From positions 832,001 through 896,000 of the forward strand of contig OZ242029.1 of the NCBI GenBank assembly GCA_965205015.1: DNA of 64,000 nt, given 5' to 3'. The notes under the pieces are model-generated. The model did not search any database. It was not told the origin of the DNA and was given only the letters and a program-made list of their open reading frames with translations. Both the position numbers and the translations under genes were made by a program. The stretch comes from Candidatus Poribacteria bacterium. GTDB taxonomy: Bacteria > Poribacteria > WGA-4E > WGA-3G. Each line of letters begins with the position of its first letter. Positions within the stretch are counted from its first letter, which is position 1. Positions 4,080 through 21,690 of this stretch are shown here, one piece after another.

Positions 4080-5033
4080 TCAATCAGTTTCTTCGGATGT
4101 AGGTTTCTCTACAGCGTCCGCATTCAAGTATTTCAGTGGACTCTCAACAATATAATCCCCCGAATCCTCAAGGAACTGCTGCACCAGAAAGATATGTCCG
4201 GCACCCATCATCAACAGAATGCGATCATCGGCAGATTCGGTGATCCGCGTTATATTCACGAAAATCTTGAGATTTCTATCATACCAAATATGGACAAGCC
4301 AATTCACCGCCGGATATTCGTCCCCCAATCCAACACGCGCATCATGTAAATATGCTCGCTGGCTTGCCCGGCTCCATGTCGGCTGATTCAGACGTATAAG
4401 CATGTCAGTTATTGGCTCATATTTCTCCGGTTCAATCCAGACTGTACCATCCTCATCCACTATAACTTTTCCTGGATCTACGGGATGGGATCCGAGGAGG
4501 TGCTCCTGATTATGTTTTTTGGCAAAGTCAATTGTGTTTATCAAATTACTATCAATACCACCTCTAAAGATTGGATTGTCTTTACTGCTTCGGAAATAAT
4601 CCACACAGTATATCTTTGAATGTCCCAGTTGTTTTGCTAACCGAAAGCCAATCTGGTGCCCTTCGTTACGTCTCAGTTGAAATATTCCCTCCAGATAACC
4701 TTGGTAATCTGAATTAATTTCAGCATCCCGTGAGAAATCCACTTCCATTGCTATCTTGGTAGGACTAAACGCCTTGAGTTGTTCGATTAACTGCTGAATC
4801 TCGCGTTGGCGTTTGGGGGCAAGGACATCATCCATTTTGAGATTGATGCCATCCATTCCGGGATTCGATAAGTGTGCAGTACCGAGAATCATGATTGTGG
4901 GTTTTTGGGTCATTTGCGTAGTACCTCCTGTAGACAAGTCTGTCTGATCATTGCTTATGGCTGTACCGACTGTAAGCAATAAAGCGACGAATGACATCAT
5001 CAAATAGAATTGGCATTTTACTAAGACTTTCAT
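4080..5033 (-). CDS. Secreted TIKI/TraB-like (DUF5694-type) putative metallohydrolase
   Basis: Signal peptide from MKVLVK; motifs ILGTAH, IAME, EGHQIGF, WYDRNLKI, GAGH. It is a paralog of the four genes at 11349-15275. The in-frame ORF extension to 5171 is a sigma remnant. Confidence 0.8.
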   Translation of the reverse strand: MKVLVKCQFYLMMSFVALLLTVGTAISNDQTDLSTGGTTQMTQKPTIMILGTAHLSNPGMDGINLKMDDVLAPKRQREIQQLIEQLKAFSPTKIAMEVDFSRDAEINSDYQGYLEGIFQLRRNEGHQIGFRLAKQLGHSKIYCVDYFRSSKDNPIFRGGIDSNLINTIDFAKKHNQEHLLGSHPVDPGKVIVDEDGTVWIEPEKYEPITDMLIRLNQPTWSRASQRAYLHDARVGLGDEYPAVNWLVHIWYDRNLKIFVNITRITESADDRILLMMGAGHIFLVQQFLEDSGDYIVESPLKYLNADAVEKPTSEETD

Positions 5034-5073
5034 AAAACTTTTTCCTATTTTCCGCTGTGCGGTTGATTCGATT

Positions 5074-5171
5074 ATATCCTCCACATCTTCCCGATTTCCG
5101 AGTAGATAGAGGATGTGCTGATAAACCTGAACTTTGTGTTGATAGATAAGCTCAAATTTATCTTCTGTCAT
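5074..5171 (-). pseudogene. Truncated duplicate of the ECF sigma 5' end (~33 codons)
   Basis: MTEDKFELIYQHKVQVYQHILYLLGNREDVEDI aligns with MTEDKFLELVDQHKARVYQHTLYLLGNREDAEDI of 16656-17201. The DNA similarity extends into the upstream promoter. Confidence 0.85.
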
Positions 5172-5202
5172 ATTGCATTTCAGCGCATTTCGAGGTTACT
5201 GT

Positions 5203-5231
5203 TACTACAAACGAGTTCCAAAATAGTTGCA
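5203..5231 (-). promoter_or_regulatory. ECF sigma promoter copy 3 (TGCAAC-N16-TGTAGTA)
   Basis: Same -35/-10 boxes and 16-nt spacer length as the copies at 7474-7502 and 17233-17261. Confidence 0.8.
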
Positions 5232-5329
5232 CTTTTCCCAACTCAATATATAACGTGAATTCAACTGAGGACCGTAGTGAGGCGTTGGGTTCCGTTAGAT
5301 GTGTTTATCCGAAGCGACATTTGAAAAAA

Positions 5330-7330
5330 TTAGAACGCACGGATCACCTTAGCAACTAACCGCTGTTTGAATTCTTGGGCATTTGGGTCGCCGAGGATGA
5401 TGAAGAAGTCGGTGCCAGCGTACCCGGAGCGGCGCAGTGCGAAGTAGACGTTAATGCCTTCTACTTGCCAGATTAACCGACTTCCGAGACTTAAGGCAGG
5501 TGTGAAATCATAAGCAAGGGTTAGAATCTGCTGGTATCGCTGCTCGAAATGCCACTGGACTTGTGAAGTCAAACCAGCAGTGAAGCCATAAGCACGCACA
5601 TTCAGGTTTCCACTGATTTGATAAATCGGTTCACCCGCTTGTTCACCCCACTCATAATCGATACTCACGTTGTTGAAGCGATCCGAAGCACGGGCTCCCA
5701 AGCTGATCCCGAACACAGAATCTGTGAATTCTCTAAATCGACCGCCGTTCCAGAAAGTCGTAACTGAATAGTCACTGTGTGTCAAGAGTTGCGTGGCAAA
5801 CCTGATGTCGCGACTGAAAACTTCACCTTCATAGGTATTGGTAGCATCGGTATGCGCAAAGAGCATAAGACTGCGAACGATCCCCTCGCGCCACTCGTTC
5901 TTGAACGTAGCACCGAAATTTACACCGCGATACCCTTTGAAGGGATGGTAGCCGAGATTATTGACGAAATCCGGATCTACAAAAAAAACATTTGAATAGG
6001 ATTGAATGAGGGGACCGTTGTATCTCAAACCGAGGGTCCCATCTCTTCCATCTGACTCATCCGCCCAACTTTGGGTAAAATCACCGTGGACTGAAAATCT
6101 ACCGTGTCGCGCACTACCCGATACATGGCCCACATTGTTCAACGGATCGCCTCGTTTGTGATGTGATAAGAACATAGCACTGATTTTGGATGTCGCTGTA
6201 AGGGGTTGGGAGGCACTCAGGATGAAGTTCTGGTTATTTCGATGGTAAGTGCCTAAGGTACCGATGGAGGTGTTTTTCCCCAGTTTCCCAAAGAGTTTAA
6301 GCCCACCGTCCATATCCTCTATCCGTCGTGAGTGAAAAAGGTTGCCAAATGCCCCGGTGTTATAGACATTGCCACCTTCAGAAAAGAAAGGCCGGCGGTC
6401 TGAGACATAACGTTCACCGTAAGAGAAATCAATACCCTCTACCGCTTGTTCGACATTCTCAAAATCCGGGTTGACAGTGCCGATGAGCCGTAGTTGGGGC
6501 GTAACCTCATAACGGAGGTCTGCACCCGCGCGGGCAGTGGATTCCCTTCGCGACCCGGAGGTCGCTCCCACAGAAGTTTCCGTTTCGCTGATACCCCCAA
6601 TGAGATACGGTAGTATCTTGAGTTCGCGTTTTCGAGGCGGTGGCAGAACCCCGACCCAGTGGCCATCGTTCTCTTTAAATTCGTTTACCCCTAAGTTGGA
6701 CCACCACGATTTTTCGCCTGTCCGCTGCTGCTGGCGATCAAGGTTGATACCCATCCCAAGGGGTTCAGTAGTTTCGGGGTAATCCAGCATCTGCCACGGG
6801 ATTTCCATCTCCACGATCCAGCCGTCTTCCACAATCTGTGCGGCGGTTTTCCACAATCCGATCCATTCGCTTTTCTCCGCACGTCCGGTGGCGAGATGCG
6901 CGTATTTCGTGCCGAGTGGATTTACGATGAAGAAATTTCTGTCCGAAAACTGGTGCGTGTGGAACGGGTCAAGACTGAAAGATACCGAGTCTTCGCCTTG
7001 AAACCGGGTCTGATCTTTGGTTTGACGGGCGACAATTTTATCGGGCACATCATCGTAGAGATGCAGCCCAACATAAATGGCGGTGTCTGTATAAACCAGA
7101 TGCCCCACAGATTGGTTTTTCGCCGGCTTTTCGGTACGTTCATCAATGAAGGTATTCGCTTCCGGTGCGTCTTGCCAGCATTTATCATCAAGGACGCCGT
7201 CGATGGTAGGTGGGTGTTCCGTTTTAACTGCAGGAAGTTCTTTTTTTATCGCTGTGTCGTTTGAAACCGCCCAGAGCTGAGAGCCTATGGTGAGTGTTAA
7301 GGTGATAATGATTAACAAATTTCCTTTCAT
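5330..7330 (-). CDS. CBM9-like/DUF5916-type outer-membrane protein
   Basis: Signal peptide; PTIDGVLDD..W and GWIVEMEIPW (CBM9-like); TVNPDF and RRPFFSEG (DUF5916-like); beta-strand-rich C-terminus ending in Phe. Confidence 0.78.
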   Translation of the reverse strand: MKGNLLIIITLTLTIGSQLWAVSNDTAIKKELPAVKTEHPPTIDGVLDDKCWQDAPEANTFIDERTEKPAKNQSVGHLVYTDTAIYVGLHLYDDVPDKIVARQTKDQTRFQGEDSVSFSLDPFHTHQFSDRNFFIVNPLGTKYAHLATGRAEKSEWIGLWKTAAQIVEDGWIVEMEIPWQMLDYPETTEPLGMGINLDRQQQRTGEKSWWSNLGVNEFKENDGHWVGVLPPPRKRELKILPYLIGGISETETSVGATSGSRRESTARAGADLRYEVTPQLRLIGTVNPDFENVEQAVEGIDFSYGERYVSDRRPFFSEGGNVYNTGAFGNLFHSRRIEDMDGGLKLFGKLGKNTSIGTLGTYHRNNQNFILSASQPLTATSKISAMFLSHHKRGDPLNNVGHVSGSARHGRFSVHGDFTQSWADESDGRDGTLGLRYNGPLIQSYSNVFFVDPDFVNNLGYHPFKGYRGVNFGATFKNEWREGIVRSLMLFAHTDATNTYEGEVFSRDIRFATQLLTHSDYSVTTFWNGGRFREFTDSVFGISLGARASDRFNNVSIDYEWGEQAGEPIYQISGNLNVRAYGFTAGLTSQVQWHFEQRYQQILTLAYDFTPALSLGSRLIWQVEGINVYFALRRSGYAGTDFFIILGDPNAQEFKQRLVAKVIRAF

Positions 7331-7473
7331 GTGCTTATCCTTTCTTCCTTTCTGTATTGTGTGGGATTTATACCCACTTAGCTGCAACGTGTATTGGAAC
7401 CTGCCAAGTCAATAGCGAGACAACACCTTGATTGGATCGACTCACAAAAACATGGCAATGAACTTGTGGTTGG

Positions 7474-7502
7474 TACTACAAATGGGACGGGAAAAAGTTG
7501 CA
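7474..7502 (-). promoter_or_regulatory. ECF sigma promoter copy 2 (TGCAAC-N16-TGTAGTA)
   Basis: The boxes and spacer length are conserved while the 3' part of the spacer differs from the other two copies. Confidence 0.8.
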
Positions 7503-7584
7503 CTTTTTTCTTTCGAATCGGAAAGGCTTGGGATAGGGCGCGTGGAGGCAGTTTTGGGAATTGATCGGGCTGATAAAATGTGCC

Positions 7585-7713: not shown

Positions 7714-9516
7714 TTAAGCGTACCAAGATGCCTGGGCGTTCCACATTTCGGCATATAATCCATCAATGGCAAGCAACTCTTCGTGTGTGCCGTCTTCGAC
7801 GAGTTGTCCTTCATCTAAAACGAGAATTCTGTCACAGAGGCGGGCGACCCCAAGCCGATGCGAGATGACAAGCGTGGTACGCGATGCGTCTTTGGTGAGG
7901 AGTTCGCGGATCATTTCAACTTCGGCGACTGGGTCAATGGCGGCAGTGGGTTCATCAAATACGACGAATTGACTCTGTCGGAAAAGTCCACGCGCAACGG
8001 CGAGGCGCAGCCATTCTCCACCGGACACGTCGCGTCCGCCGAATTCGTGTCCGAGCCAAGTGTCAAGTTCTTGTGCGAAAGTAGAACCTGCTCTGTCGAG
8101 TGTGTGCCGCATAAAGGTGTCGTCTTGCATACGGTTCGGGTCAGCAAAGCCGACATTATCCCTAACAGGCAGTAGGAACTTCGTGAAGTCCTGAAAGACA
8201 GCACTCGTTGTGGGTTTTTCGGAAGCCGTAGCACCTTGCGAAAACATGAGTGTTCCGCTATCTGGAACGTACAAACCGAGCAATATATTTGCGAGTGTTG
8301 TCTTTCCAGCACCATTTTTCCCGACGAGTGCGACGGTTTCGCCAGGCACTATTTTCGCGGTAATCTCCTTGAGGGTCTGCGTCGCTGCGCGAGGGTATCG
8401 AAATGAGAGATCATTCATGGCGACTGTTATCTCTCCCGCTTCTGCAGCGAGTAGTGGCATCCCTTGTGGTTGCCCCTGGCCTTCCTGATGTTTCTCCGTC
8501 GCATCAGAAACACTAAGCTCTTGGGTGGATTGCGTTGTGAACAGCGTCGCAAGATCACGTAAGACACCGCTCTGTTCGGCGAGATTCCCCATAGAGCGCG
8601 CCATATATGAGAGAAATCCTTGTAACCCAGCGGCAGCGGCAATTAAACCCGTGAAGGTACCGGCGATTTTCTCAGGGTCGCCGTTATGTGCAACCCGTGC
8701 TGCGATGAAAACGATCACACAATATCCGAAGACAGAACTGAGGTTGGCGAGTGCGTTCCAGGCGGTTTTCCTTTTGAGGGATCCTATTTCCACCGTGGCG
8801 AGTTGACGATACGCGTTTTCCCATTTTGAAAGCAACCAACGTTGAAGTGTAAAGAGGCGGACCTCTGGACTGTTGACACGCTCGTAGAGCCGAGCTGCCC
8901 ACGCTGTCTGTGTTCGGTTGGGACGTGCTGCCGCTCGGTCTTGCTCGAGTTCAAGTCTGGCAATAGGTTTCCTTGTGAAGAGAATGATGGAGGAACTGAC
9001 CAGCAAAGCCGCCATACACCATATATCACTACTGATAATAAAGATTGCGCCCAACAGTCCGCAGACACTCGCGACACTATGGATATTATCCACAACACTC
9101 TGAAACCAACTGACGACGCGATCACTGAAACCTTGCGTTGCTCGGCTAAGATTATCGTGAAAGTCAGGGTCGAAAAAATGGAGCAGGGGTGTTTGTCCAG
9201 CTTGACGCAGAAGGTCTTGCTGGAAGTGTAGCACCGCTTTATTGGAGAACCACATCTGTGTTACGCGATTGAAAACATCGGTTAATATTTCTAAGGTCAT
9301 TAGCACGAGAAAAACACCCATCCATAAAAAGAGTCCCTCAGCATTTACTAACGCGTTTGTGAATCCGGCGATGATAACCGGCGAAAAACCGCGGTTTCCG
9401 GCGTTTATCAAACGGAGCAGAAGTATGACAAAGAGGGGAAGGGGTGCAATCCGTATAAATTGCCAGATTAAGCGAAGAACTGCGCGTCGAGGTAATGTGT
9501 TTGTGTCTCTCATCAT
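7714..9516 (-). CDS. ABC transporter permease/ATPase, second subunit of a pair
   Basis: GKNGAGKT, VSGGEWLR, VVFDEP, ISHR; ATGA overlap with the stop of the upstream paralog. Confidence 0.9.
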   Translation of the reverse strand: MMRDTNTLPRRAVLRLIWQFIRIAPLPLFVILLLRLINAGNRGFSPVIIAGFTNALVNAEGLFLWMGVFLVLMTLEILTDVFNRVTQMWFSNKAVLHFQQDLLRQAGQTPLLHFFDPDFHDNLSRATQGFSDRVVSWFQSVVDNIHSVASVCGLLGAIFIISSDIWCMAALLVSSSIILFTRKPIARLELEQDRAAARPNRTQTAWAARLYERVNSPEVRLFTLQRWLLSKWENAYRQLATVEIGSLKRKTAWNALANLSSVFGYCVIVFIAARVAHNGDPEKIAGTFTGLIAAAAGLQGFLSYMARSMGNLAEQSGVLRDLATLFTTQSTQELSVSDATEKHQEGQGQPQGMPLLAAEAGEITVAMNDLSFRYPRAATQTLKEITAKIVPGETVALVGKNGAGKTTLANILLGLYVPDSGTLMFSQGATASEKPTTSAVFQDFTKFLLPVRDNVGFADPNRMQDDTFMRHTLDRAGSTFAQELDTWLGHEFGGRDVSGGEWLRLAVARGLFRQSQFVVFDEPTAAIDPVAEVEMIRELLTKDASRTTLVISHRLGVARLCDRILVLDEGQLVEDGTHEELLAIDGLYAEMWNAQASWYA

Positions 9517-11279
9517 TGATACCACTCACTTTGTGCTGCGAACATTTCAGCGTATTTTCCATTCCGCTGTAGGAGTTCAGTGGGATTCCCGATTTCTACA
9601 ATGCGTCCACCATCCAAAACAACCACGCGATCGGCAAGCCGTGTCGGTCCGAGTCGATGGGCGATGAGCAGGGCAGTTTTACCCTCTACCAATTCAACAA
9701 ACTGCTGAAAAATTTCCAACTCAGCAAGAGGGTCAAGGGCTGCCGTGGGTTCGTCAAAAATGACAAATTCGCCACCTTCTTTTATCAGACTCCGAGCGAT
9801 AGCGACGCGTTGCCATTCACCGCCAGAGAAATCCGCACCCCCGAATTCGGGACCTAAAAGCGAACTTAGCGGGAATTTTTCTGCTGGCAATCCGACTTGG
9901 GCTAAGGTCGCTTCGGTGTGTGCATCGGCGGCAGTGGCACCGTCCAAAATCAGGTTCTCGCGTAGGGTGGTCGGATAGCGTGCCGGATGCTGAAACACGA
10001 CGGTGCAAGCACGCCGGAGGTCTTCAGATGAAATCGTGGTGGTATCAATACCATCTATCGTGATATTTCCTGCTGTTGGAGAACGCAAACCTGCTAAAAT
10101 GTGTGCCAAAGTCGTCTTTCCCGCGCCATTTTCACCGACGACAGCGAGAATTTCGCCCGGACGGATGTGAACGTTAATATCGGAGAGCGCGTCTGTGTCT
10201 GCACCCGGGTAACGATACGCGACGCTATGCAAGCGGATACCTTCACGCATCGAGTGTGGATAAGGCGTACGCGCTTCGGGAGCGTCTTCATCTTGCTTTT
10301 CTTCTAACAGACGGCGAAGGTCTTCTCCGTAGCCAGCGTGTTGGACAAAACCGATGACGAAATACTGCATCGAGTTCATACCCGCGGTGATATTCCGAAA
10401 TGCTTCTAACACCAAAGCCGCGAGTCCAGCTTCAACCCTTCCCTGTGAAAGCGATGTAACGAGCAGTGCCCCAGCGATGATGGCTACGAAAATAAATACC
10501 TGGAAAATACCTTGAGAGGCATTTCGAAAATCGATATGCAAGCGTTCCTGAAGATATTGGGCGAGGATCGTCCGCCAGCGTTGGAGAAGGGGTTCGCCGA
10601 TGGACCATAAACGGATTTCAGCGGCACTGCGCCGTTCTGTTAGAAGTTGGACGTAGTAATCCGCAAGTCGTTTGTTGCGTGTATTTTCCACCTCAAAGTG
10701 GCGCACTCGGGCGCCCATCTGAATTTCAAAAACCCGCAGCAATATTGCCCCACCGATGATGATCACGGGAATCCAAATCGAAATCAGTCCTAACACAACG
10801 GCACTGGTGAACAGGACAGGCGTGTATTCAATAAAGTTCAAGCCATTTTGCATTAATTGGACAACGCTCGAATCCCCACCAGTAACGACGCGATTGATGA
10901 GGTTATGCGATTCCTCGTCATCAAATGCCTCTAATGGTAATTTGCCTGTCTTTTGCAAAGCATCCCGCTGCAAAGCGAAACCGGCTCTAATGCGGAGTTG
11001 CTCGCGTAAAAGTGGGAGGAGTGTTAAGATCGCCTGCTCTACGAAAAAGAGGAGGCAAAGCGCAGCCAGCCATGGGACAGCACTCCTCATAATATCTGCA
11101 TCGACGAGGGTATTAACGGTTTCCCGGAGCACAAGCAGATGGGCTGCCGCAGCACCTGCATTGATGAGGACAAGGGTTATCCACACAGCGGCAATAAAAG
11201 GCGAAGCTTTTAACACCTGTCCGAACAACCAGAGTAGGTCTCGAAATGAAGGGCGCGTTAATTTTTCTTTGTCCCACAT
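9513..11279 (-). CDS. ABC transporter permease/ATPase, first subunit of a pair
   Basis: GENGAGKT, FSGGEWQR, VIFDEP, IAHR; C-terminal AQSEWY matches AQASWY of the partner. Confidence 0.9.
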   Translation of the reverse strand: MWDKEKLTRPSFRDLLWLFGQVLKASPFIAAVWITLVLINAGAAAAHLLVLRETVNTLVDADIMRSAVPWLAALCLLFFVEQAILTLLPLLREQLRIRAGFALQRDALQKTGKLPLEAFDDEESHNLINRVVTGGDSSVVQLMQNGLNFIEYTPVLFTSAVVLGLISIWIPVIIIGGAILLRVFEIQMGARVRHFEVENTRNKRLADYYVQLLTERRSAAEIRLWSIGEPLLQRWRTILAQYLQERLHIDFRNASQGIFQVFIFVAIIAGALLVTSLSQGRVEAGLAALVLEAFRNITAGMNSMQYFVIGFVQHAGYGEDLRRLLEEKQDEDAPEARTPYPHSMREGIRLHSVAYRYPGADTDALSDINVHIRPGEILAVVGENGAGKTTLAHILAGLRSPTAGNITIDGIDTTTISSEDLRRACTVVFQHPARYPTTLRENLILDGATAADAHTEATLAQVGLPAEKFPLSSLLGPEFGGADFSGGEWQRVAIARSLIKEGGEFVIFDEPTAALDPLAELEIFQQFVELVEGKTALLIAHRLGPTRLADRVVVLDGGRIVEIGNPTELLQRNGKYAEMFAAQSEWYQ

Positions 11280-11348: not shown

Positions 11349-12143
11349 TCATTGTGTTTCTTCCGCACTTAAGTAGTCTAACGGGCTCTCAACGATATAA
11401 TCCCCCGAATCCTCAAGAAACTGTTGGACGAGGAAAACATGTCCAGCACCGATAATCAGTAGAATGCGATCGTCAGCAGATTCGGTGATACGGGTTAAAT
11501 TCACAAATATTTTGAGATTCCGAGCATACCAAATATGGGCAAGCCAATCTGCACCCGGATATTTGTCGTCTAACCCAATACGTGCATCATGTAAGTATGC
11601 CCGCTGGCTCGCACGGCTCCATGCAGGCTGATTGAGGCGGATATACATGTCGATTATCGGTTCATATTCCTCAGGTTCAATCCAGCCTGTCCCGTCCTCA
11701 TCCTGTGTAACTTTTTCCGGAGATCCGGGATGGGATCCAAAGAGGTGCCTCTGATTGTGTTTTTTCGCAAACTCGCTGCGGTTTATCAAATGACCTTTCA
11801 TGCTTTCAAAGATCGGATCTTGCTTTGGCCAATAATCAACGCAATACACTTTTGAATGTCTCACCATTTTCGCCAATCGAAACCCGACTTGATGGATTTC
11901 ATGGCGTTCAAGTTGAAATTCATCCTTCAGATAGGCATTGTATTCCTGCTGAAGATTGGAGTCAAGGTAGTCGACCTCAACAGCTATCTTCGTCGGCTGA
12001 AATTGAGCCAGTTGATCAGCAAGTTGTTGAAGTTCGCGCTGACGTTTAGGCGCGCGCATATCATCTATATTATCTCCATCCCAACCTGCCAAGTGGTGAC
12101 TCCCGAGAATCATAACTGTAGGTTTCGTCTGATGTTTCATCAA
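11349..12143 (-). CDS. TIKI/TraB-like (DUF5694-type) protein, no signal peptide
   Basis: ILGSHH, IAVE, EIHQVGF, WYARNLKI, GAGH; ATGA-coupled to the upstream gene. Confidence 0.82.
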   Translation of the reverse strand: MMKHQTKPTVMILGSHHLAGWDGDNIDDMRAPKRQRELQQLADQLAQFQPTKIAVEVDYLDSNLQQEYNAYLKDEFQLERHEIHQVGFRLAKMVRHSKVYCVDYWPKQDPIFESMKGHLINRSEFAKKHNQRHLFGSHPGSPEKVTQDEDGTGWIEPEEYEPIIDMYIRLNQPAWSRASQRAYLHDARIGLDDKYPGADWLAHIWYARNLKIFVNLTRITESADDRILLIIGAGHVFLVQQFLEDSGDYIVESPLDYLSAEETQ

Positions 12144-12955
12144 TTAGCATCCTCCATTTTTAAGTATTGCAGCGGACTTTCGACAATGTAATCGCCTGAA
12201 TCCTCAAGAAACTGTTGGACGAGGAAGACATGCCCAGCACCGATAATCAGTAGAATACGATCGTCAGCAGATTCGGTGATACGCGTCAGGTTAATGCAGA
12301 TTTTGAGGTTCCGAGCGTACCAACTATGGGCAACCCAATTCGCACCCGGATATTGGTCCCCTAATCCAATACGCGCACTGCGTAGATACGCCTGATGATC
12401 CGCGAGTCTACCTTCAGGCTCGTTGAGACGTATGTACATCTCAATTATAGGTTCGTATTTCTCAGGTTCAATCCAAGTTGTGCCATCTTTGTCCTGAGTG
12501 ATTTTTCCTTCTATAGGTGGGGGACGTAGGAAATGCTTCTGATTATGAGTCTCTGCGAACTTATAGCGATCCATCAAATCCCAATCAATCTTACTCTCAG
12601 GAAGACGGGGGGACCGTTCCGTCCAAAAATAATCCACACAGTGTACCTTCGGATGTCCGATCTGCTTTGCCAATCGAAACGCAATCTGATGGATTTCATG
12701 GCGTTCAAGTTGGAAGTTATCCTTCAGATACGCATTATACTCCGCTTGCTTTTCAGCGTCCCAACGTGTGTCGGATTCAATGGCTATCTTCGTCGGTTTG
12801 AAGCGCGCAAGTTGTTCAACGAGTTGCTGAATCTCGGCTTGGCGCTTTGGTGTGAGGACATCATCCATTTTTGTATTGTATACATCCGCTCCCCAGTTTG
12901 CCAAGTGCGGACTGCCGAGAATCATGATTGTCGGTTTCGTCTGATGTTTCATCAA
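12140..12955 (-). CDS. TIKI/TraB-like (DUF5694-type) protein, no signal peptide
   Basis: ILGSPH, IAIE, EIHQIAF, WYARNLKI, GAGH; ATGA-coupled to the upstream gene. Confidence 0.82.
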   Translation of the reverse strand: MMKHQTKPTIMILGSPHLANWGADVYNTKMDDVLTPKRQAEIQQLVEQLARFKPTKIAIESDTRWDAEKQAEYNAYLKDNFQLERHEIHQIAFRLAKQIGHPKVHCVDYFWTERSPRLPESKIDWDLMDRYKFAETHNQKHFLRPPPIEGKITQDKDGTTWIEPEKYEPIIEMYIRLNEPEGRLADHQAYLRSARIGLGDQYPGANWVAHSWYARNLKICINLTRITESADDRILLIIGAGHVFLVQQFLEDSGDYIVESPLQYLKMEDAN

Positions 12956-13824
12956 TCAGCATCCTCCGCCTTTAGGTATTTGAGTGGATTCTCAACGATG
13001 TAATCCCCGGAATCTTCAAGGAATTGTTGGACGAGGAAGACATGCCCGACACCGATAATCAGCAGAATGCGATCGTCAGCAGATTCGGTGATACGGGTTA
13101 AATTTACAAAGATTTTGAGGTTCCGAGCATACCAAATATGGGCAAGCCAATCCGCACCCGGATATTTGTCGCCTAACCCAATACGTGCATCATGTAAGTA
13201 TGCTCGCTGGCTCGCGCGGGTCCTTACGGGCTGATTGAAGCGTATGTACTTGTCAATTATCGGTTCATATTTCTCAAGTTTTCCTGGATCTGTAGGATCT
13301 CCGAAACGGTGATCCTCAGGAGATCCGAGAAGGTATTCCTGATTGTGAACTTTTGCAAACTCGCTGCGGTTTATCAAATGCCCTTTAATGCTTTCAAAGA
13401 TCGGATCTCGTTTGGGCCAATAATCAACACAATACATCTTTGAATGTCCGAACTCTTTTGCTAACCTATATCCAATCTGATCTCCCTCATAGGGTCCGAG
13501 TGCGTAGGTCCCGTTTAAATAACCTTGATAGCGTTTGTTTTCAGCGTCGCAACGGCTTGGATCCAACTCAACCGCTATCTTGGTAGGTTTAAATCCTTTG
13601 AGGTGTTCAACCACCTGTTCAATCTCGCGTTGGCGTTTGGTCGCGAGGACATCATCCGAAAAGTGCCAACTGCCAAGAATCATAATCGTCGGTTTTTTCG
13701 TCATGTGCGTAGTATCCTCTGTAGACGGGTCTGTCCGGTCATCACTTGCGACTGTGCCGACCGCAAGTAACACAGCGACGAATAACATTATCAAATAGAA
13801 CTCGTATTTCACTAAGGCTTTCAT
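12952..13824 (-). CDS. Secreted TIKI/TraB-like (DUF5694-type) protein
   Basis: Signal peptide; ILGSWH, IAVE, EGDQIGY, WYARNLKI, GVGH. Confidence 0.82.
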   Translation of the reverse strand: MKALVKYEFYLIMLFVAVLLAVGTVASDDRTDPSTEDTTHMTKKPTIMILGSWHFSDDVLATKRQREIEQVVEHLKGFKPTKIAVELDPSRCDAENKRYQGYLNGTYALGPYEGDQIGYRLAKEFGHSKMYCVDYWPKRDPIFESIKGHLINRSEFAKVHNQEYLLGSPEDHRFGDPTDPGKLEKYEPIIDKYIRFNQPVRTRASQRAYLHDARIGLGDKYPGADWLAHIWYARNLKIFVNLTRITESADDRILLIIGVGHVFLVQQFLEDSGDYIVENPLKYLKAEDAD

Positions 13825-13880
13825 AAAACTTCTCCTATCTGTGGTATCGGTAACCCTGCCTGAAAAAAGAAAACAACAGA

Positions 13881-15275
13881 TTAAGGCGTTTCCGCTTTGT
13901 TTGCATCCAAGTATTTCAACGGACTTTCAACGATATAGTCCCCCGATTCCTCAAGAAACTGCTGAATCAGATACACATGCCCAGCACCGATAATCAGCAG
14001 AATGCGATCATCGGTGGACTCCGTGATGCGCGTCAAATTCACAAAATTCTTGAGATTATGCGCATACCACCAATGTGCAACCCAATTGGCACCTGGATAT
14101 TGGTTTTTGAGTCCAATGCGTGCGGTGCGCAGATATGATTGATGACCGGTGTACATCTGTGCAGGCTCGTTTATCCGTATGTACATGTCAATTAGGGGTT
14201 CATATTCTTCGCGCTCAACCCAGACCGTGCCATCTACGTCCGCCCGAACTTTCACCCCGCTTGAGGAAACGCTCCATAAGAGGTGCTCCTGATTATGCGT
14301 CTCCGCAAATGTGGCGTAGTCTAATAAACTCTTATCAATTTCATCATATATCGGCCGGTGCTTTGGCCAATCAGCAACACAATAAAGCTTCGGATGTCCC
14401 ATCTGTTTGGCTAACCGAAAGCCGAATTGGTCAGGCAGGCTCCGTGTGAGTTCATAAGTGCCCTCCAAGTAGCTTTGATAGCTTGCGTTAATCTCCGCAT
14501 CATCCCTTTCGTCTACATAAACGGCTATCTTGGTGGGACTAAACGCTCTAAGTTGCTGCACCAGTTGTTCCATTTCGCGTTGGCGTTTGGGCGCGAGGAC
14601 ATCATCCATTCTTGTATTGAATACATTGATTCCCGGATTTGTGAAGAAGTCACTACCCAGAATCATGACTGTCGCTTTGTCTCGTGTGTCCCCTCTGTTC
14701 CATTGTCCTTTCAATTTGTCGCCAAAATCGATGTCCACCGCACCGAAATTGCTGAGATTCCCGAGCAATTCCTCAATGCGTTCCGGTGCGATCTCACCGA
14801 CAATGTTGACAAAGGTGGCTTCTCCAGACCTTTTCGGGATGATGATAGCGAAAATCCCGTAAACCTTCTCTTCATCAAACAGTAGATTAATCTCTACCGT
14901 TTCACCGCGCTCCTCAATTTTGACGAGGACTTCCCACTCATCGTTCTTGAGCTTCTCCTTGAAATAGTTAACTAATTTCTTCTCATCAATCGTTGCCCTA
15001 TCGTAAGTCCGGACATAGATACCGTCTAACATCTGGATCAGCTCGGCGACTTCGGGTTGATTGCTCACCGATTTGGTTACCAGACTGATGAGTTTCGAGG
15101 TTAAGTTAACCTCGACCTTTGCCTCAAGAGGTTCTGGGAAATCGAAGAGGATGAGTCCTTTTCTATCAGTCTTGTCCGATTTGTCCTGCTGCGCGACTGC
15201 TGAATGCATCAGTGTTAGCGATGCAACCAAAAACAGCAACGTGAACAGTCGTATAAAGTGCTTTTGCGGTTTCAT
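13881..15275 (-). CDS. Secreted DUF4252-like plus degenerate DUF5694-type fusion protein
   Basis: Signal peptide; DUF4252-like GIYVRTY / WEVLVKI / FVNIVGEI; C-terminal paralogous domain with substituted motif residues. Confidence 0.78.
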   Translation of the reverse strand: MKPQKHFIRLFTLLFLVASLTLMHSAVAQQDKSDKTDRKGLILFDFPEPLEAKVEVNLTSKLISLVTKSVSNQPEVAELIQMLDGIYVRTYDRATIDEKKLVNYFKEKLKNDEWEVLVKIEERGETVEINLLFDEEKVYGIFAIIIPKRSGEATFVNIVGEIAPERIEELLGNLSNFGAVDIDFGDKLKGQWNRGDTRDKATVMILGSDFFTNPGINVFNTRMDDVLAPKRQREMEQLVQQLRAFSPTKIAVYVDERDDAEINASYQSYLEGTYELTRSLPDQFGFRLAKQMGHPKLYCVADWPKHRPIYDEIDKSLLDYATFAETHNQEHLLWSVSSSGVKVRADVDGTVWVEREEYEPLIDMYIRINEPAQMYTGHQSYLRTARIGLKNQYPGANWVAHWWYAHNLKNFVNLTRITESTDDRILLIIGAGHVYLIQQFLEESGDYIVESPLKYLDANKAETP

Positions 15276-15296
15276 GGGTTCTACTCCTTATCTATT

Positions 15297-15983
15297 TTAA
15301 CGATTCGTTGTTGTATTCCCTGATTTCAGGGCATGATCCGGTTTCTCGGCGTTGCGCTTTACTTCCCACCCGTGGGACATCGGGACGTTTATCCAATTGC
15401 GAACTGTTTCGGAGATCGACTCCCTCGAATTAGATTCCAGAAGTTGTCCAAATAGAGTGCCGAGTTTCTGAAAGTCGATCTCTCCATAGATGTTCACAAA
15501 GCCCGAATTGCCATTATCGGTGAACATAACGAAAATACCGTTCACTACGCCCGGTTTTTCCGAGTAGAGCAGGCTGAGATCGAATGTATCCCTGATTTTG
15601 ATGAGATGCTCCCACTTCTCATTTGCAAGGATGCTACGGTAGTGGTCCACGATCCGGTTGAGGTCTCTCATCTCTCCATCGTAAGCCCGGATAGAGGCAC
15701 CTTTTAGCATTTCGGCATACGCCGTATATTCCGACATATCTATCGATTTATCTCCAGAAAGTTCCGGATGACTTGCGATACCGAAATTGATAAAGAGGCC
15801 TAAGAGGCTCTTGTCTAAGGTAATTTCCACCTTTGGGACAGGGGCATCCGGCAGATTCATTTCTATCTGACCCCGAACTGTTTCTCCTACGTTGCCGTTC
15901 TGGGCGTGCCCATTGGTGAAGAAACAGCAAACTGCTAAAAAGGCTATACCTGCTAAAAGGGCTGTAAGGGTGGATCTTTTCAT
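15297..15983 (-). CDS. Secreted DUF4252-like protein
   Basis: AAGGAG RBS before MKRSTL signal peptide; KVEITL, WEHLIKI and FVNIYGEID match the N-domain of 13881-15275. Confidence 0.72.
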   Translation of the reverse strand: MKRSTLTALLAGIAFLAVCCFFTNGHAQNGNVGETVRGQIEMNLPDAPVPKVEITLDKSLLGLFINFGIASHPELSGDKSIDMSEYTAYAEMLKGASIRAYDGEMRDLNRIVDHYRSILANEKWEHLIKIRDTFDLSLLYSEKPGVVNGIFVMFTDNGNSGFVNIYGEIDFQKLGTLFGQLLESNSRESISETVRNWINVPMSHGWEVKRNAEKPDHALKSGNTTTNR

Positions 15984-15996
15984 GCGTTTTTTCTCC

Positions 15997-16659
15997 TTAA
16001 TATGAACGTTGATCGGTTTTTGTATCCAGAGTGCCGTGCGGTAATCGGTCAAGACTATCCAGACTCCGATGGATTGCCGATGAAATATTTCTCTTCTGTT
16101 TTGACACATGACGGGAGGCTGTTTCAATCTGAACAAACGGACGACTTGAAACTTCATCAATCCGCACATCCGGGAGTTTCTCGTTAACAATCGTGCCGGT
16201 TCGCTCCACGGCGTAATTCAACTTACTGAGTGCATAAGCCAAGTCGCGGGAGGCTTGCTGCACTTTCAGATGCTGTTGGTACTGATAGGTCCCGAACAGG
16301 ACAACTCCGATGAGGCACGCCAACGCGCCTGCGCGAGCGAGTACCGAAGTTAAATCATCCGAGAACGTAAACAGTTGGCATATCCGATGTAGCCACTTGG
16401 GTCCCTTGTTGGGATGCGCGCGAACGTACGCCTCAACGGCGTTGAAAATTGCCGGGGATGGCTCTGGTTTCGGAAGTTCGTGTAATGCGCCGCTAATTGC
16501 TTCTGCGAAGCGAATTTCCTCTTGACACATTGAACAGGATGCAACATGTGCCGCTACCGTCGTCGCCGTATTTGCATCCAATTCATCGTCAAGATACGCT
16601 TCTAAGGTATCCTGAACTTCCGTACACGTTAAATCTGGATGGGAAGGAAATTGGTTCAT
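15997..16659 (-). CDS. Zinc-finger (zf-HC2/ZAS) membrane anti-sigma factor
   Basis: C..V...L.AYLD.EL...HVASCSMC (HxxxCxxC), one TM helix; ATGA-coupled to the sigma gene. Confidence 0.9.
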   Translation of the reverse strand: MNQFPSHPDLTCTEVQDTLEAYLDDELDANTATTVAAHVASCSMCQEEIRFAEAISGALHELPKPEPSPAIFNAVEAYVRAHPNKGPKWLHRICQLFTFSDDLTSVLARAGALACLIGVVLFGTYQYQQHLKVQQASRDLAYALSKLNYAVERTGTIVNEKLPDVRIDEVSSRPFVQIETASRHVSKQKRNISSAIHRSLDSLDRLPHGTLDTKTDQRSY

Positions 16660-17201
16660 TCGTTATCTCTCCAGTAGGGACGCAGTAACTCCCGCAACCG
16701 CTTGCGGGCACGAAATGCTGTTGATTTCACAGTTCCTTCGGGTTGTTCTAACACCGCTGCGATCTCCTTGAAACTCATGCCGTTCAATTCCCGCATAATT
16801 ATGACTGACCGCATATCTGGTGGCAATTTTTGAATCGCACACTGGACCGAGTCTTTGAGTTCTTGTTGGATCACAATCTCATCTGGTGATGGATTCGATC
16901 GACCAGAACGCGTGTGCATCAAAGTTTCGAGTTCTGTTTCGGGATCTGTATCGTCTCCGCCTGTTAAATGCACCTGAAATTTATCTCGCTTTAGCAGATT
17001 GAAACAGAGATTCTGCGCACATTTCAGCAACCATGAGTGTGCAGTCTTCGGACGCAATTTGTTACGGTGTTTCCACGCCGTAATGAACGTCTCCTGTGTT
17101 ATATCCTCTGCATCTTCCCGATTTCCGAGTAGATAGAGGGTGTGTTGATAAACCCGAGCCTTGTGTTGATCGACAAGCTCAAGGAATTTATCTTCTGTCA
17201 T
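16656..17201 (-). CDS. ECF RNA polymerase sigma factor (SigW/RpoE-like)
   Basis: DAEDITQETF..AW in region 2; SFKEIAAVLEQPEGTVKS..RAR in region 4. Confidence 0.95.
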   Translation of the reverse strand: MTEDKFLELVDQHKARVYQHTLYLLGNREDAEDITQETFITAWKHRNKLRPKTAHSWLLKCAQNLCFNLLKRDKFQVHLTGGDDTDPETELETLMHTRSGRSNPSPDEIVIQQELKDSVQCAIQKLPPDMRSVIIMRELNGMSFKEIAAVLEQPEGTVKSTAFRARKRLRELLRPYWRDNE

Positions 17202-17232
17202 GTTTCAGCTCCGCGCATTTTGAGGTTGCTGT

Positions 17233-17261
17233 TACTACAAACGAGTTGCAAAAAAGTTGCA
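17233..17261 (-). promoter_or_regulatory. Probable autoregulatory ECF promoter (TGCAAC-N16-TGTAGTA)
   Basis: About 30 nt upstream of the sigma start; resembles the B. subtilis SigW-type TGAAAC-N16-CGTA promoter. Confidence 0.82.
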
Positions 17262-17305
17262 CTTTTTTAATTTAAGCAATATTAAGAAACAAATCTCAGG
17301 TTCTT

Positions 17306-20502: not shown

Positions 20503-21108
20503 ATGGCATCCGCTGCAGCACAAACCTCTCTGACACCTGAAGAATACCTCGCTTTTGAACGCAAAGCGACGACGAAACATGAATACCTCAACGGACAGAT
20601 CGTCGCAATGTCCGGCGCAAGTCGCGAGCATAATCTCATCGCTGGCAACATGTTTAATGGGCTTTACACCCAATTGATAGATGGCGCGTGTGAAACTTAC
20701 ATCAGCGAAATGCGCGTGAAAAATCATCAAACACACTCCTATACATATCCAGATATCGTTGTTGTCTGTGATGAACCGCGCTTTGAGGATGATGTTTTCG
20801 ATACGTTGCTTAATCCGATTGTGCTTATTGAAGTGCTTTCGCCATCTACCGAGGCGTATGATAGAGGCGAGAAATTCGCACACTATCGGCAAATTACTTC
20901 TTTGCAAGAATACGTCCTTGTTTCACAGGATCGGATGCGTGTGGAGCACTATCTTCGGCAAGGGACCCAGTGGCTCCTCACTGAATTTTGTGGACTTCAG
21001 GAAGTGCTGTCCCTCGTTTCAATTGGCTGTGAACTCCGTTTGTCGGATATTTATAGACGCATCACATTTTCTGAGGAGTCCACCCCTTCAACAGAAGTCG
21101 GGGAGTAA
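20503..21108 (+). CDS. Uma2 (DUF820) family endonuclease-fold protein
   Basis: HEYLNGQIVAM, YPDIVV, IEVLSPSTEAYDRGEKF. Confidence 0.92.
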   Translation: MASAAAQTSLTPEEYLAFERKATTKHEYLNGQIVAMSGASREHNLIAGNMFNGLYTQLIDGACETYISEMRVKNHQTHSYTYPDIVVVCDEPRFEDDVFDTLLNPIVLIEVLSPSTEAYDRGEKFAHYRQITSLQEYVLVSQDRMRVEHYLRQGTQWLLTEFCGLQEVLSLVSIGCELRLSDIYRRITFSEESTPSTEVGE

Positions 21109-21111
21109 ATT

Positions 21112-21690
21112 ATGGCATCCGCTGCAGCACAAACTTACCTGTCCCCTGAAGAATACCTCGCTTTTGAACGCAAGGCGACGACGAAACACGAATATCTGAA
21201 TGGACAGATCGTCGCAATGTCCGGCGCAAGCTTCGCGCATAATTTCATCACGGTGAACATAGCAACTTCTCTTAACGTTCAATTGATGGAAGGGGAATGT
21301 CGAGTCGCCACCAGTGATATGCGGGTGAAGGTTACGCAAATAAATTCCTATTTTTACCCCGATGTCGTCGTTGTTTGCGGTGAGCCGCGTGCTGAAGATG
21401 ATACTTTTGACACCCTTCTGAATCCAACGCTCATCGTGGAAGTGCTTTCTCCATCAACGGAAGGTTACGATAGAGGGGAGAAATTTGAGCATTACCAGCA
21501 AATTGCTTCCTTAAAAGATTACATTCTCATCTCCCAAGACGAGATTCGCGTTGAACATTACCGTCGTCAAGAGTCCGAGTGGCTGCGGAGCGAGTTTCGG
21601 GAACTTGAGGATGTCCTATCGCTTCTTTCTATAAACTGTGAACTCCGTTTGCAAGATGTCTACAGACGCGTCGAGATCGCTTCGGGTTAA
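21112..21690 (+). CDS. Uma2 (DUF820) family protein, tandem paralog
   Basis: Same motifs; the first ~39 codons are nearly identical to the 20503 gene. Confidence 0.92.
   Translation: MASAAAQTYLSPEEYLAFERKATTKHEYLNGQIVAMSGASFAHNFITVNIATSLNVQLMEGECRVATSDMRVKVTQINSYFYPDVVVVCGEPRAEDDTFDTLLNPTLIVEVLSPSTEGYDRGEKFEHYQQIASLKDYILISQDEIRVEHYRRQESEWLRSEFRELEDVLSLLSINCELRLQDVYRRVEIASG

Follow-up and report, generated by a model that had tools for sequence, protein, structure and literature searches.

A DUF4252-DUF5694 fusion in an ECF sigma factor operon of Candidatus Poribacteria carries a conserved domain that is very probably a pseudoenzyme

In BlaR1 and MecR1, a sensor domain related to a resistance enzyme switches on that enzyme's expression, and BlaR1 does so as a single membrane protein that becomes covalently acylated and includes a protease domain. 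FecA-type outer-membrane transducers carry an N-terminal signalling domain that acts on FecR/FecI; a small N-terminal periplasmic module, found on varied receptors, here works by way of an ECF sigma/anti-sigma pair. Porphyromonas gingivalis has two sigma-hypothetical-DUF4252 gene triplets (PG0214-0216 and PG0985-0987) that are co-induced according to the accessible part of the source, and a full-text search found DUF4252 mentioned in passing in 6 papers, in two of them only as a row of a gene-expression table. The Ere (EreA-D, Bcr135/136), TIKI1/2 and RRSP hydrolases are built on an alpha/beta fold whose sheet is parallel. The available text of one study describes active members of the TIKI/TraB superfamily as having a 2His/2Glu set plus a basic residue, all required in RRSP, and the PMT C1/C2 domain as lacking the 2His/2Glu set and inactive (PMC6254334). 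In EreC, as the available text of a second study has it, H50 is the proposed base, H289 and E47 have assisting roles, the transition state is stabilised by R261, and the E78A variant has lost all activity (PMC7979712).

The window analysed here is a 64,000-nucleotide stretch of a Candidatus Poribacteria contig; all features described below lie on its reverse strand. Within it, the gene at 13881..15275 encodes a 464-residue protein made up of a signal peptide, a DUF4252 head (residues 30-191; 14703..15188), a flexible linker and a DUF5694 tail with replaced codons (residues 198-464; 13884..14684) that appears catalytically disabled. The first-pass annotation had assigned a catalytically dead, DUF4252-fused paralog to 13881-14670; the replacements it described do lie there, but that range spans only the DUF5694 half, and the whole gene is 13881-15275. 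Both assignments are well above the Pfam cut-offs: DUF5694 (PF18950) matches residues 259-456 with E = 2.2e-41 and 142.7 bits (cut-off 27.5), and DUF4252 (PF14060) matches residues 55-170 with E = 1.7e-13 and 51.2 bits (cut-off 23.9). In the AlphaFold2 model of the fusion (pLDDT 85.9, pTM 0.65) both domains are confident, and the linker between them, at about residues 178-199, has low confidence. That the protein is exported, as had been proposed, is supported by its hydrophobic N-terminal signal, which is modelled as a helix at residues 4-22 followed by a disordered stretch. All named database relatives of the fusion come from Candidatus Poribacteria, which are sponge symbionts. Among the matches listed, none of 13 long DUF5694 proteins from other lineages carries DUF4252, so that within this set the fusion appears confined to Poribacteria.

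The first gene of the operon encodes an ECF-type sigma factor (16656..17201; Pfam Sigma70_r2 and r4_2). It is followed by the gene for an anti-sigma factor (15997..16659; Pfam zf-HC2) with one membrane helix at about residues 103-125, a hydrophobic peak at residue 103 and a 95-residue tail outside the membrane, of which residues 128-205 are nearly invariant in 14 orthologs. Together these genes are an ECF module, with sigma regions 2 and 4 and an adjoining zinc-finger membrane anti-sigma factor. A stand-alone exported DUF4252 protein (15297..15983; Pfam DUF4252) comes next, and then the fusion. The gene order is that of the P. gingivalis operons PG0214-0216 and PG0985-0987, and the nearest specific NCBIfam model of the window's sigma factor is NF058625 sigma_PG0214 (105 bits, below the cut-off of 130); the P. 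gingivalis operons differ in that DUF4252 stands alone there. Downstream of the fusion lie three DUF5694 paralogs with an intact H/E/E/R/H set, of which the first is exported, to judge from its hydrophobic N-terminus (12952..13824), and the other two lack an export signal (12140..12955, which overlaps both neighbours by 4 nt, and 11349..12143). They are followed by an overlapping pair of half-size ABC exporter genes (9513-11279 and 7714-9525, together 7714..11279), likely a heterodimer. Pfam ABC_tran matches both; ABC_membrane falls below its cut-off in 9513-11279 (22.2 versus 28 bits) and is not listed for 7714-9525, and matches to MsbA and type I secretion models are far below their cut-offs. 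Beyond the exporter are a CBM9 + DUF5916 protein (5330..7387; Pfam) and a fifth DUF5694 paralog, also with the intact set (4080..5236, with the gene at 4080-5171 and a likely true start at 5033).

A scan of contigs returned 13 further Poribacteria loci with the fusion, which with the window give 14 orthologs. In all 13, the order is dehydrogenase, sigma, anti-sigma and then the fusion, with a stand-alone DUF4252 gene between anti-sigma and fusion in ten and absent in three; stop and start codons overlap at the fusion's place after sigma/anti-sigma in two of the 13. On the 3' side of the fusion there are zero to five DUF5694 genes, followed by the ABC pair in the 11 loci long enough to include it (two of the 13 stop short of this point) and usually by a CBM9 gene. 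Some of the intact-set paralogs have a hydrophobic N-terminus and others lack it. Upstream of the sigma gene lies a conserved 42-bp element (17225..17266) that may serve the sigma operon as promoter or operator: each of the 13 related loci has it at this place, with 0-8 mismatches, and further copies precede extra DUF5694 genes and a CBM9 gene. The window itself has a weak copy upstream of the CBM9 + DUF5916 gene (7466-7507, 9 mismatches). Sigma-70 and terminator scans of the operon gave nothing above the shuffled expectation, and a literature search found nothing on ECF sigma factors in Poribacteria.

We compared the fusion tail with the four unfused DUF5694 paralogs of the window (12952-13824, 12140-12955, 11349-12143 and the distant copy 4080-5171), in all of which the H, E, E, R, H set is invariant. 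In this five-paralog alignment, with codons checked, the four motif changes read in the first-pass annotation occur in the fusion only: LGxxH becomes LGSDF (F210, codon 14646-14648), IAxE becomes IAVY (Y253, 14517-14519), ExxQ becomes LPDQ (L280, 14436-14438) and WYxRN becomes WYAHN (H406, 14058-14060). GAGH is unchanged, as had also been seen, and the second histidine of the set, H433 of the GxGH motif (13977-13979), is retained. Beyond these four changes, two more conserved residues are replaced, in D217N (codon 14625-14627) and I410N (14046-14048); the six family-conserved positions replaced in the tail are accordingly H210F, D217N, E253Y, E280L, R406H and I410N.

These positions are among the least variable of the whole family. 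A family profile search of 1.84 billion representatives yielded 2337 members at E <= 0.001, 150 of them listed, and we counted conservation over the 149 listed representatives besides the fused one (<=50% identity, gapped rows skipped). The first histidine is present in 143/143, the first glutamate in 147/147, the second glutamate in 146/147, the arginine in 142/143 and the histidine at 433 in 142/143; the full H-E-E-R-H set is found in 134 of the 149, and the other 15 comprise 12 with gaps only and 3 with a single change. All six positions replaced in the fusion are near-invariant in this diverse set. Losses in the fused clade are concentrated at such sites: when positions were taken as fully replaced, 5 of the 16 most conserved (conserved both family-wide and among Poribacteria paralogs) were lost, versus 7 of the 123 positions that are constrained but less conserved (Fisher p = 0.005), a contrast that weakens to 5/16 versus 16/123 (p = 0.07) under the looser criterion of being kept in <80% of fused sequences. 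A pseudoenzyme would be expected to look like this, with its scaffold retained and its most invariant polar residues gone.

On DUF5694 itself, a full-text literature search found no paper. Searching PDB sequences with the fusion, and likewise with a family profile built from 128 sequences, returned nothing relevant; VapC30 (E 0.29) and RecX (E 0.41) were set aside as chance-level matches. Foldseek with the model of the intact paralog 11349-12143 (pLDDT 90.4) gave no match at E <= 0.001. The best was 2rad_B (E 0.021), and the Ere-family entries 2rad, 2qgm, 6xcs and 6xcq and ChaN (2g5g) were among the best, at E 0.02-0.43 and TM 0.26-0.36, with unrelated folds also in the top ten. Sub-threshold Pfam matches of DUF5694 members included TraB_PrgY_gumN in 35/128 and ChaN in 2/128, alongside an unrelated terminase model in 14/128, and an Atlas search for DUF5694 produced a lead to TraB scoring 0.80. 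On this weak but consistent evidence, DUF5694 looks like a TIKI/TraB/erythromycin-esterase-type fold. The intact paralogs share with the Ere, TIKI and RRSP hydrolases the motif order GxxH, E, basic residue, GxxH; unlike them they have the extra invariant residues E280 and D217, and neither sequence nor fold comparison gave a significant match.

By order and spacing, F210 of the fusion would correspond to H50 of EreC, Y253 to E78, H406 to R261 and the retained H433 to H289. The distance from the arginine to the second histidine is 27 residues in DUF5694, 28 in EreC and 29 in RRSP. The proposal that the lost residues are the TIKI/Ere catalytic His-Glu pair and basic Arg is thus borne out in order and spacing, whereas the superfamily link on which it leans is weak (best Foldseek E 0.02). 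In both models the replaced positions fall at strand ends or helix starts along one sheet edge: 210 after strand 201-208, 253 in strand 249-255, 280 at the start of helix 280-292, 406 in helix 394-416, and the retained 433 just past strand 424-430. Judging from these models, the six replaced positions may line one pocket.

To follow the replacements across orthologs, we put the five proteins of the window into one alignment with the 120 top-ranking homologs. This alignment holds 61 true DUF4252 fusions (60 database proteins and the window's), and the expectation that orthologous fusions share the same losses held without exception: H210, E253, E280 and R406 are kept in 0/61, so that the fusions, in contrast to Ere, TIKI and RRSP, have neither the histidine of the first GxxH nor the glutamate paired with it nor the basic residue. 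At positions 210/253/280/406/433, 40 fusions read F-Y-L-H-H, 10 F-Y-Y-H-H and 3 F-H-Y-H-H; the remainder are five single variants and three truncated rows. By comparison, 61 of 63 unfused Poribacteria rows have H-E-E-R-H. The two exceptions, P0060 and P0062, are unfused rows with fused-type residues and look like chimeras or fragments.

The same alignment bears on the idea that the tail is a neofunctionalised enzyme, in which Y253, H406, N410 and N217, together with the retained H433, Q283 and N407, would form a new active site for another chemistry or substrate. The replacement residues are polar and, Y253, H406 and N410 among them, 92-98% fixed in the fused clade, the exception being position 280, which varies (L in 42, Y in 16 and others in 3, I, S and R among them); selection on the tail, described below, is also as strong as on the intact-set paralogs. 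Position 210, however, is F, S or L, none of them catalytic, and we know of no precedent for such a neofunctionalised site. Moreover, the accessible EreC work makes the equivalent of H210 the proposed base and finds that loss of the glutamate equivalent to E253 abolishes all activity (PMC7979712). We consider a new active site quite unlikely.

In order to assess constraint, we calculated pairwise Nei-Gojobori dN/dS over the 14 orthologs (91 pairs for the dead tail). The values were 0.22 for the tail, 0.07 for the DUF4252 head, which is the most constrained part of the protein, 0.10 for the sigma factor, 0.24 for the anti-sigma factor and 0.14 for the first ABC gene. Reciprocal-best pairs of intact-set paralogs gave 0.14, at higher dS than the dead tails; in matched dS bins, the tail had 0.21, 0.24 and 0.17 and the intact-set paralogs 0.19, 0.17 and 0.17. 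The dead domain is therefore under purifying selection (0.17-0.24) much like that on its intact relatives (0.17-0.19), as the first-pass annotation had asked of a true pseudoenzyme. In a quick maximum-likelihood tree, the 14 dead tails form one branch (SH-aLRT 100, stem length 0.46) nested inside the Poribacteria expansion of DUF5694. A single well-supported branch indicates that residue loss was a single old event, maintained since; by the same token, the many fused sequences are not independent support. That the tail is a decaying relic carried along by a functional head would agree with its dN/dS being three times that of the head. Against it, none of the 61 sequences has a broken reading frame, the scaffold retains 118 of its 139 constrained positions (11/16 + 39/47 + 68/76), dN/dS equals that of the intact-set paralogs and the model is confident, which leaves decay an extremely improbable explanation, close to refuted.

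Because the residues are lost in 61/61 fusions, with a single origin and purifying selection since, a conserved pseudoenzyme is well supported, and for the ancestral reaction the fusion tail is very probably just that, as far as its sequence can tell. Retention of the dead domain by selection implies a non-catalytic role, and the fusion probably binds rather than cuts its target. Such use has relatives: PMT C1/C2 and ChaN have the hydrolase fold without the catalytic set and put it to non-catalytic use. They differ from the fusion in that they are not in sigma factor operons, not fused to DUF4252 and not found beside intact paralogs.

The head offers clues to what that role may be. The only Foldseek match of the fusion model at E <= 0.001 was DcrB (6e8a, E = 1.9e-4), followed by weaker matches to EagT6 (6xrf), PA94, Mog1p (1eq6) and LpqN, and on this modelled structure the DUF4252 head is of the Mog1p/PsbP/DcrB-like fold class. 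DcrB itself is described, in the part of the source available, as a periplasmic protein anchored in the membrane, from a family that associates with membrane-anchored complexes (PMC7716261). At least 120 longer proteins carry this head, 57 of them dead-hydrolase fusions and 63 with other tails; of the 63 listed, 46 have a CBM9 and/or an Omp85-type barrel (about 810-860 aa), 2 have CBM9+LamG and 15 are shorter or unassigned. Over residues 1-191, the window protein shares 76% identity with the start of a CBM9+Omp85 protein, and the likeness ends exactly at the junction. Unfused head homologs of about 200 aa are 42-54% identical to the fusion head, and the neighbouring stand-alone DUF4252 protein is 27% identical to it. 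The CBM9 part of the 5330-7387 protein is 55% identical to the CBM9 of the DUF4252-headed barrel proteins.

These data suit two accounts of the pseudoenzyme. In one, the tail does not signal: its job would be to bind or sequester a compound or to serve as a scaffold, the head only docks, and the sigma factor is controlled otherwise. Pfam names ChaN as a haem-binding Tiki-superfamily protein, and a head that also sits on outer-membrane-type barrels suits docking as well as signalling. Further precedent comes from the inactive PMT C1/C2 domain of the same superfamily (PMC6254334) and the association of DcrB-type proteins with membrane-anchored complexes (PMC7716261), both as given in the accessible parts of those sources. 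The partners of such a scaffold or regulator could be the intact paralogs, the ABC exporter or the CBM9 barrel protein. What speaks for a regulatory tie instead is circumstantial: the fusion is fixed after sigma/anti-sigma in 13/13 loci, and DUF4252 is tied to ECF operons in another phylum. We regard the non-signalling account as rather unlikely, with more in its favour than a new active site.

The best single reading is that the fusion is a sensor that signals to the anti-sigma factor, to which we give a probability of roughly 0.45. The support for such a relay is circumstantial: synteny in 13 genomes, the constrained head, the presence of the head on CBM9+Omp85 barrels and the common upstream element. 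On this reading, the DUF5694 tail descends from a duplicated hydrolase-like paralog and, keeping the scaffold, has lost the residues of the ancestral chemistry (the GxxH histidine, its glutamate partner, the second invariant glutamate, the arginine, D217 and I410). Its most likely role would then be to bind the compound, or compound class, on which the intact paralogs act. The head, as an interaction module on a flexible linker, might couple ligand binding to the outside tail of the anti-sigma factor or to the stand-alone DUF4252 protein, leading to release of the ECF sigma factor. Freed sigma would presumably drive its own operon, including the DUF5694 paralogs and the ABC exporter pair, and perhaps the extra DUF5694 and CBM9 genes that have the same upstream element.

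One part of the first-pass proposal, that of a periplasmic pseudoenzyme binding the same substrate, cannot apply to all intact paralogs: 11349-12143 and 12140-12955 lack an export signal and are predicted to be cytoplasmic, so the compartment is not common to the fusion and all intact paralogs. The proposed sensor would resemble BlaR1 and MecR1 in using an enzyme-related domain as receptor for the enzyme's regulon, and would differ from BlaR1 in that a separate anti-sigma factor would pass on the signal. With FecA it would share a small N-terminal periplasmic module, carried by varied receptors and acting by an ECF sigma/anti-sigma pair; unlike FecA, the fusion has a Mog1p/PsbP-like head fold and neither a TonB box nor a TonB-dependent barrel. 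A literature search found nothing on periplasmic pseudoenzymes tied to anti-sigma factors. Should the dead domain prove to be a receptor, bacteria would have in it a clear example of how a resistance-type enzyme became sensor of its own regulon, and it could serve as a ligand-fishing handle for the substrate of an enzyme family expanded in sponge symbionts.

Whichever account applies, the fusion links DUF4252 and DUF5694, two families without known function, and ties a class of ECF-accompanying proteins (in Bacteroidota and Poribacteria) to defined output genes. It also provides a testable idea for DUF4252, namely a docking or signalling head. A wider reading, which we hold to be doubtful, takes DUF4252 as the periplasmic signalling head of an undescribed form of extracytoplasmic signalling, in which interchangeable tails report to a zf-HC2 anti-sigma factor and the dead hydrolase is an enzyme-derived receptor. 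The tails that would be interchanged are CBM9+Omp85 barrels, CBM9+LamG and the dead hydrolase, with the junction at residue 191. Were this so, the hydrolases and exporter would be induced by their own substrate, perhaps a lactone or peptide of the sponge holobiont. In a FastTree of 133 heads, those of the dead-hydrolase fusions fall together with two barrel-type heads nested among them, and deeper branches are barrel-type or unfused. There are hints, to be taken as a lead only, that dead-hydrolase fusions and barrel-type head proteins occur in different genomes: among contigs longer than 1 Mb, the 16 lengths recorded for one set and the 14 for the other have no value in common.

The fifth paralog retains a trace of the sigma gene. 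A copy of the 42-bp element with 3 mismatches lies upstream of it (5195-5236), and element and first ~34 sigma codons are duplicated before it as one stretch (5072-5236), with 88% identity over 168 nt to 17099-17266. The database protein P0119, which looked like a fusion yet has all of H-E-E-R-H, turned out to be a paralog of this 4080 type with an N-terminal sigma-gene remnant rather than a DUF4252 head.

Nucleotide comparison within the window identified a second copy of the sequence leading into the ECF-type sigma factor gene (16656-17201, minus strand), with 17099-17266 (-) and 5072-5236 (-) matching at 88% over 168 nt. The duplicated segment consists of the 65 nt 5' of the sigma gene together with its first ~34 codons, and the duplicate lies 5' of the DUF5694 paralog at 4080-5171 (-). 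The longest reading frame of this paralog therefore begins with a remnant of the sigma factor, and its true start is likely at 5033. A further, weak copy of the upstream element is located at 7466-7507. Because a 42-bp core of the element is kept 5' of the sigma gene in all thirteen related Poribacteria loci that hold the fusion (L001-L013), and is also found before other DUF5694 genes and one CBM9 gene, this core may serve as the promoter from which the sigma factor drives its own gene, and it may mark the sigma factor's regulon.

The DUF5694 genes themselves are variable in number. Each genome whose locus reaches the ABC genes carries from one to five of them between the fusion and the pair of half-size ABC exporter genes (at about 11400-16900 of the locus). 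Exported and signal-less kinds are intermixed, and the overall pattern suggests that DUF5694 paralogs are gained and lost fast. The stand-alone DUF4252 gene is absent from L005, L011 and L012 (region around 9300-10010 of these loci), and in L005 and L011 the anti-sigma gene runs into the fusion, its stop codon overlapping the fusion's start.

The fusion has its DUF4252 head in common with proteins bearing other tails. Together with its signal peptide and linker (14703-15275, minus strand), the head is 55-84% identical to that of 63 other proteins among the matches listed (P0327-P0389), of which 46 have an Omp85-type barrel as the tail, two have CBM9 plus LamG, and 15 are shorter or unassigned. 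Many of the 46 listed barrel proteins contain a CBM9 domain, and the head/tail junction falls at the identical residue in the fusion and in the listed other-tail proteins.

Four database homologues may represent either recombination between paralogs or assembly artefacts. P0060 is active-type at its N-terminus (H210, D217) and dead-type, with conserved residues replaced, in the remainder; P0062, recorded from Geodia barretti and annotated as a nisin transporter, consists of a dead-type fragment fused with an ABC ATPase; and P0379 and P0380 are barrel-type proteins whose heads nest within those of the dead fusions.

The active DUF5694 paralog 11349-12143 has Tetrahymena mitochondrial complex IV subunits (7w5z_E, 8bqs_DQ and 8b6h_DQ, at ranks 2, 7 and 11) among its top fold matches, beside Ere-family entries. 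Elsewhere in the window, two tandem paralogous reading frames, 20503-21108 (+; 201 aa) and 21112-21690 (+; 192 aa), are almost the same at their N-termini.
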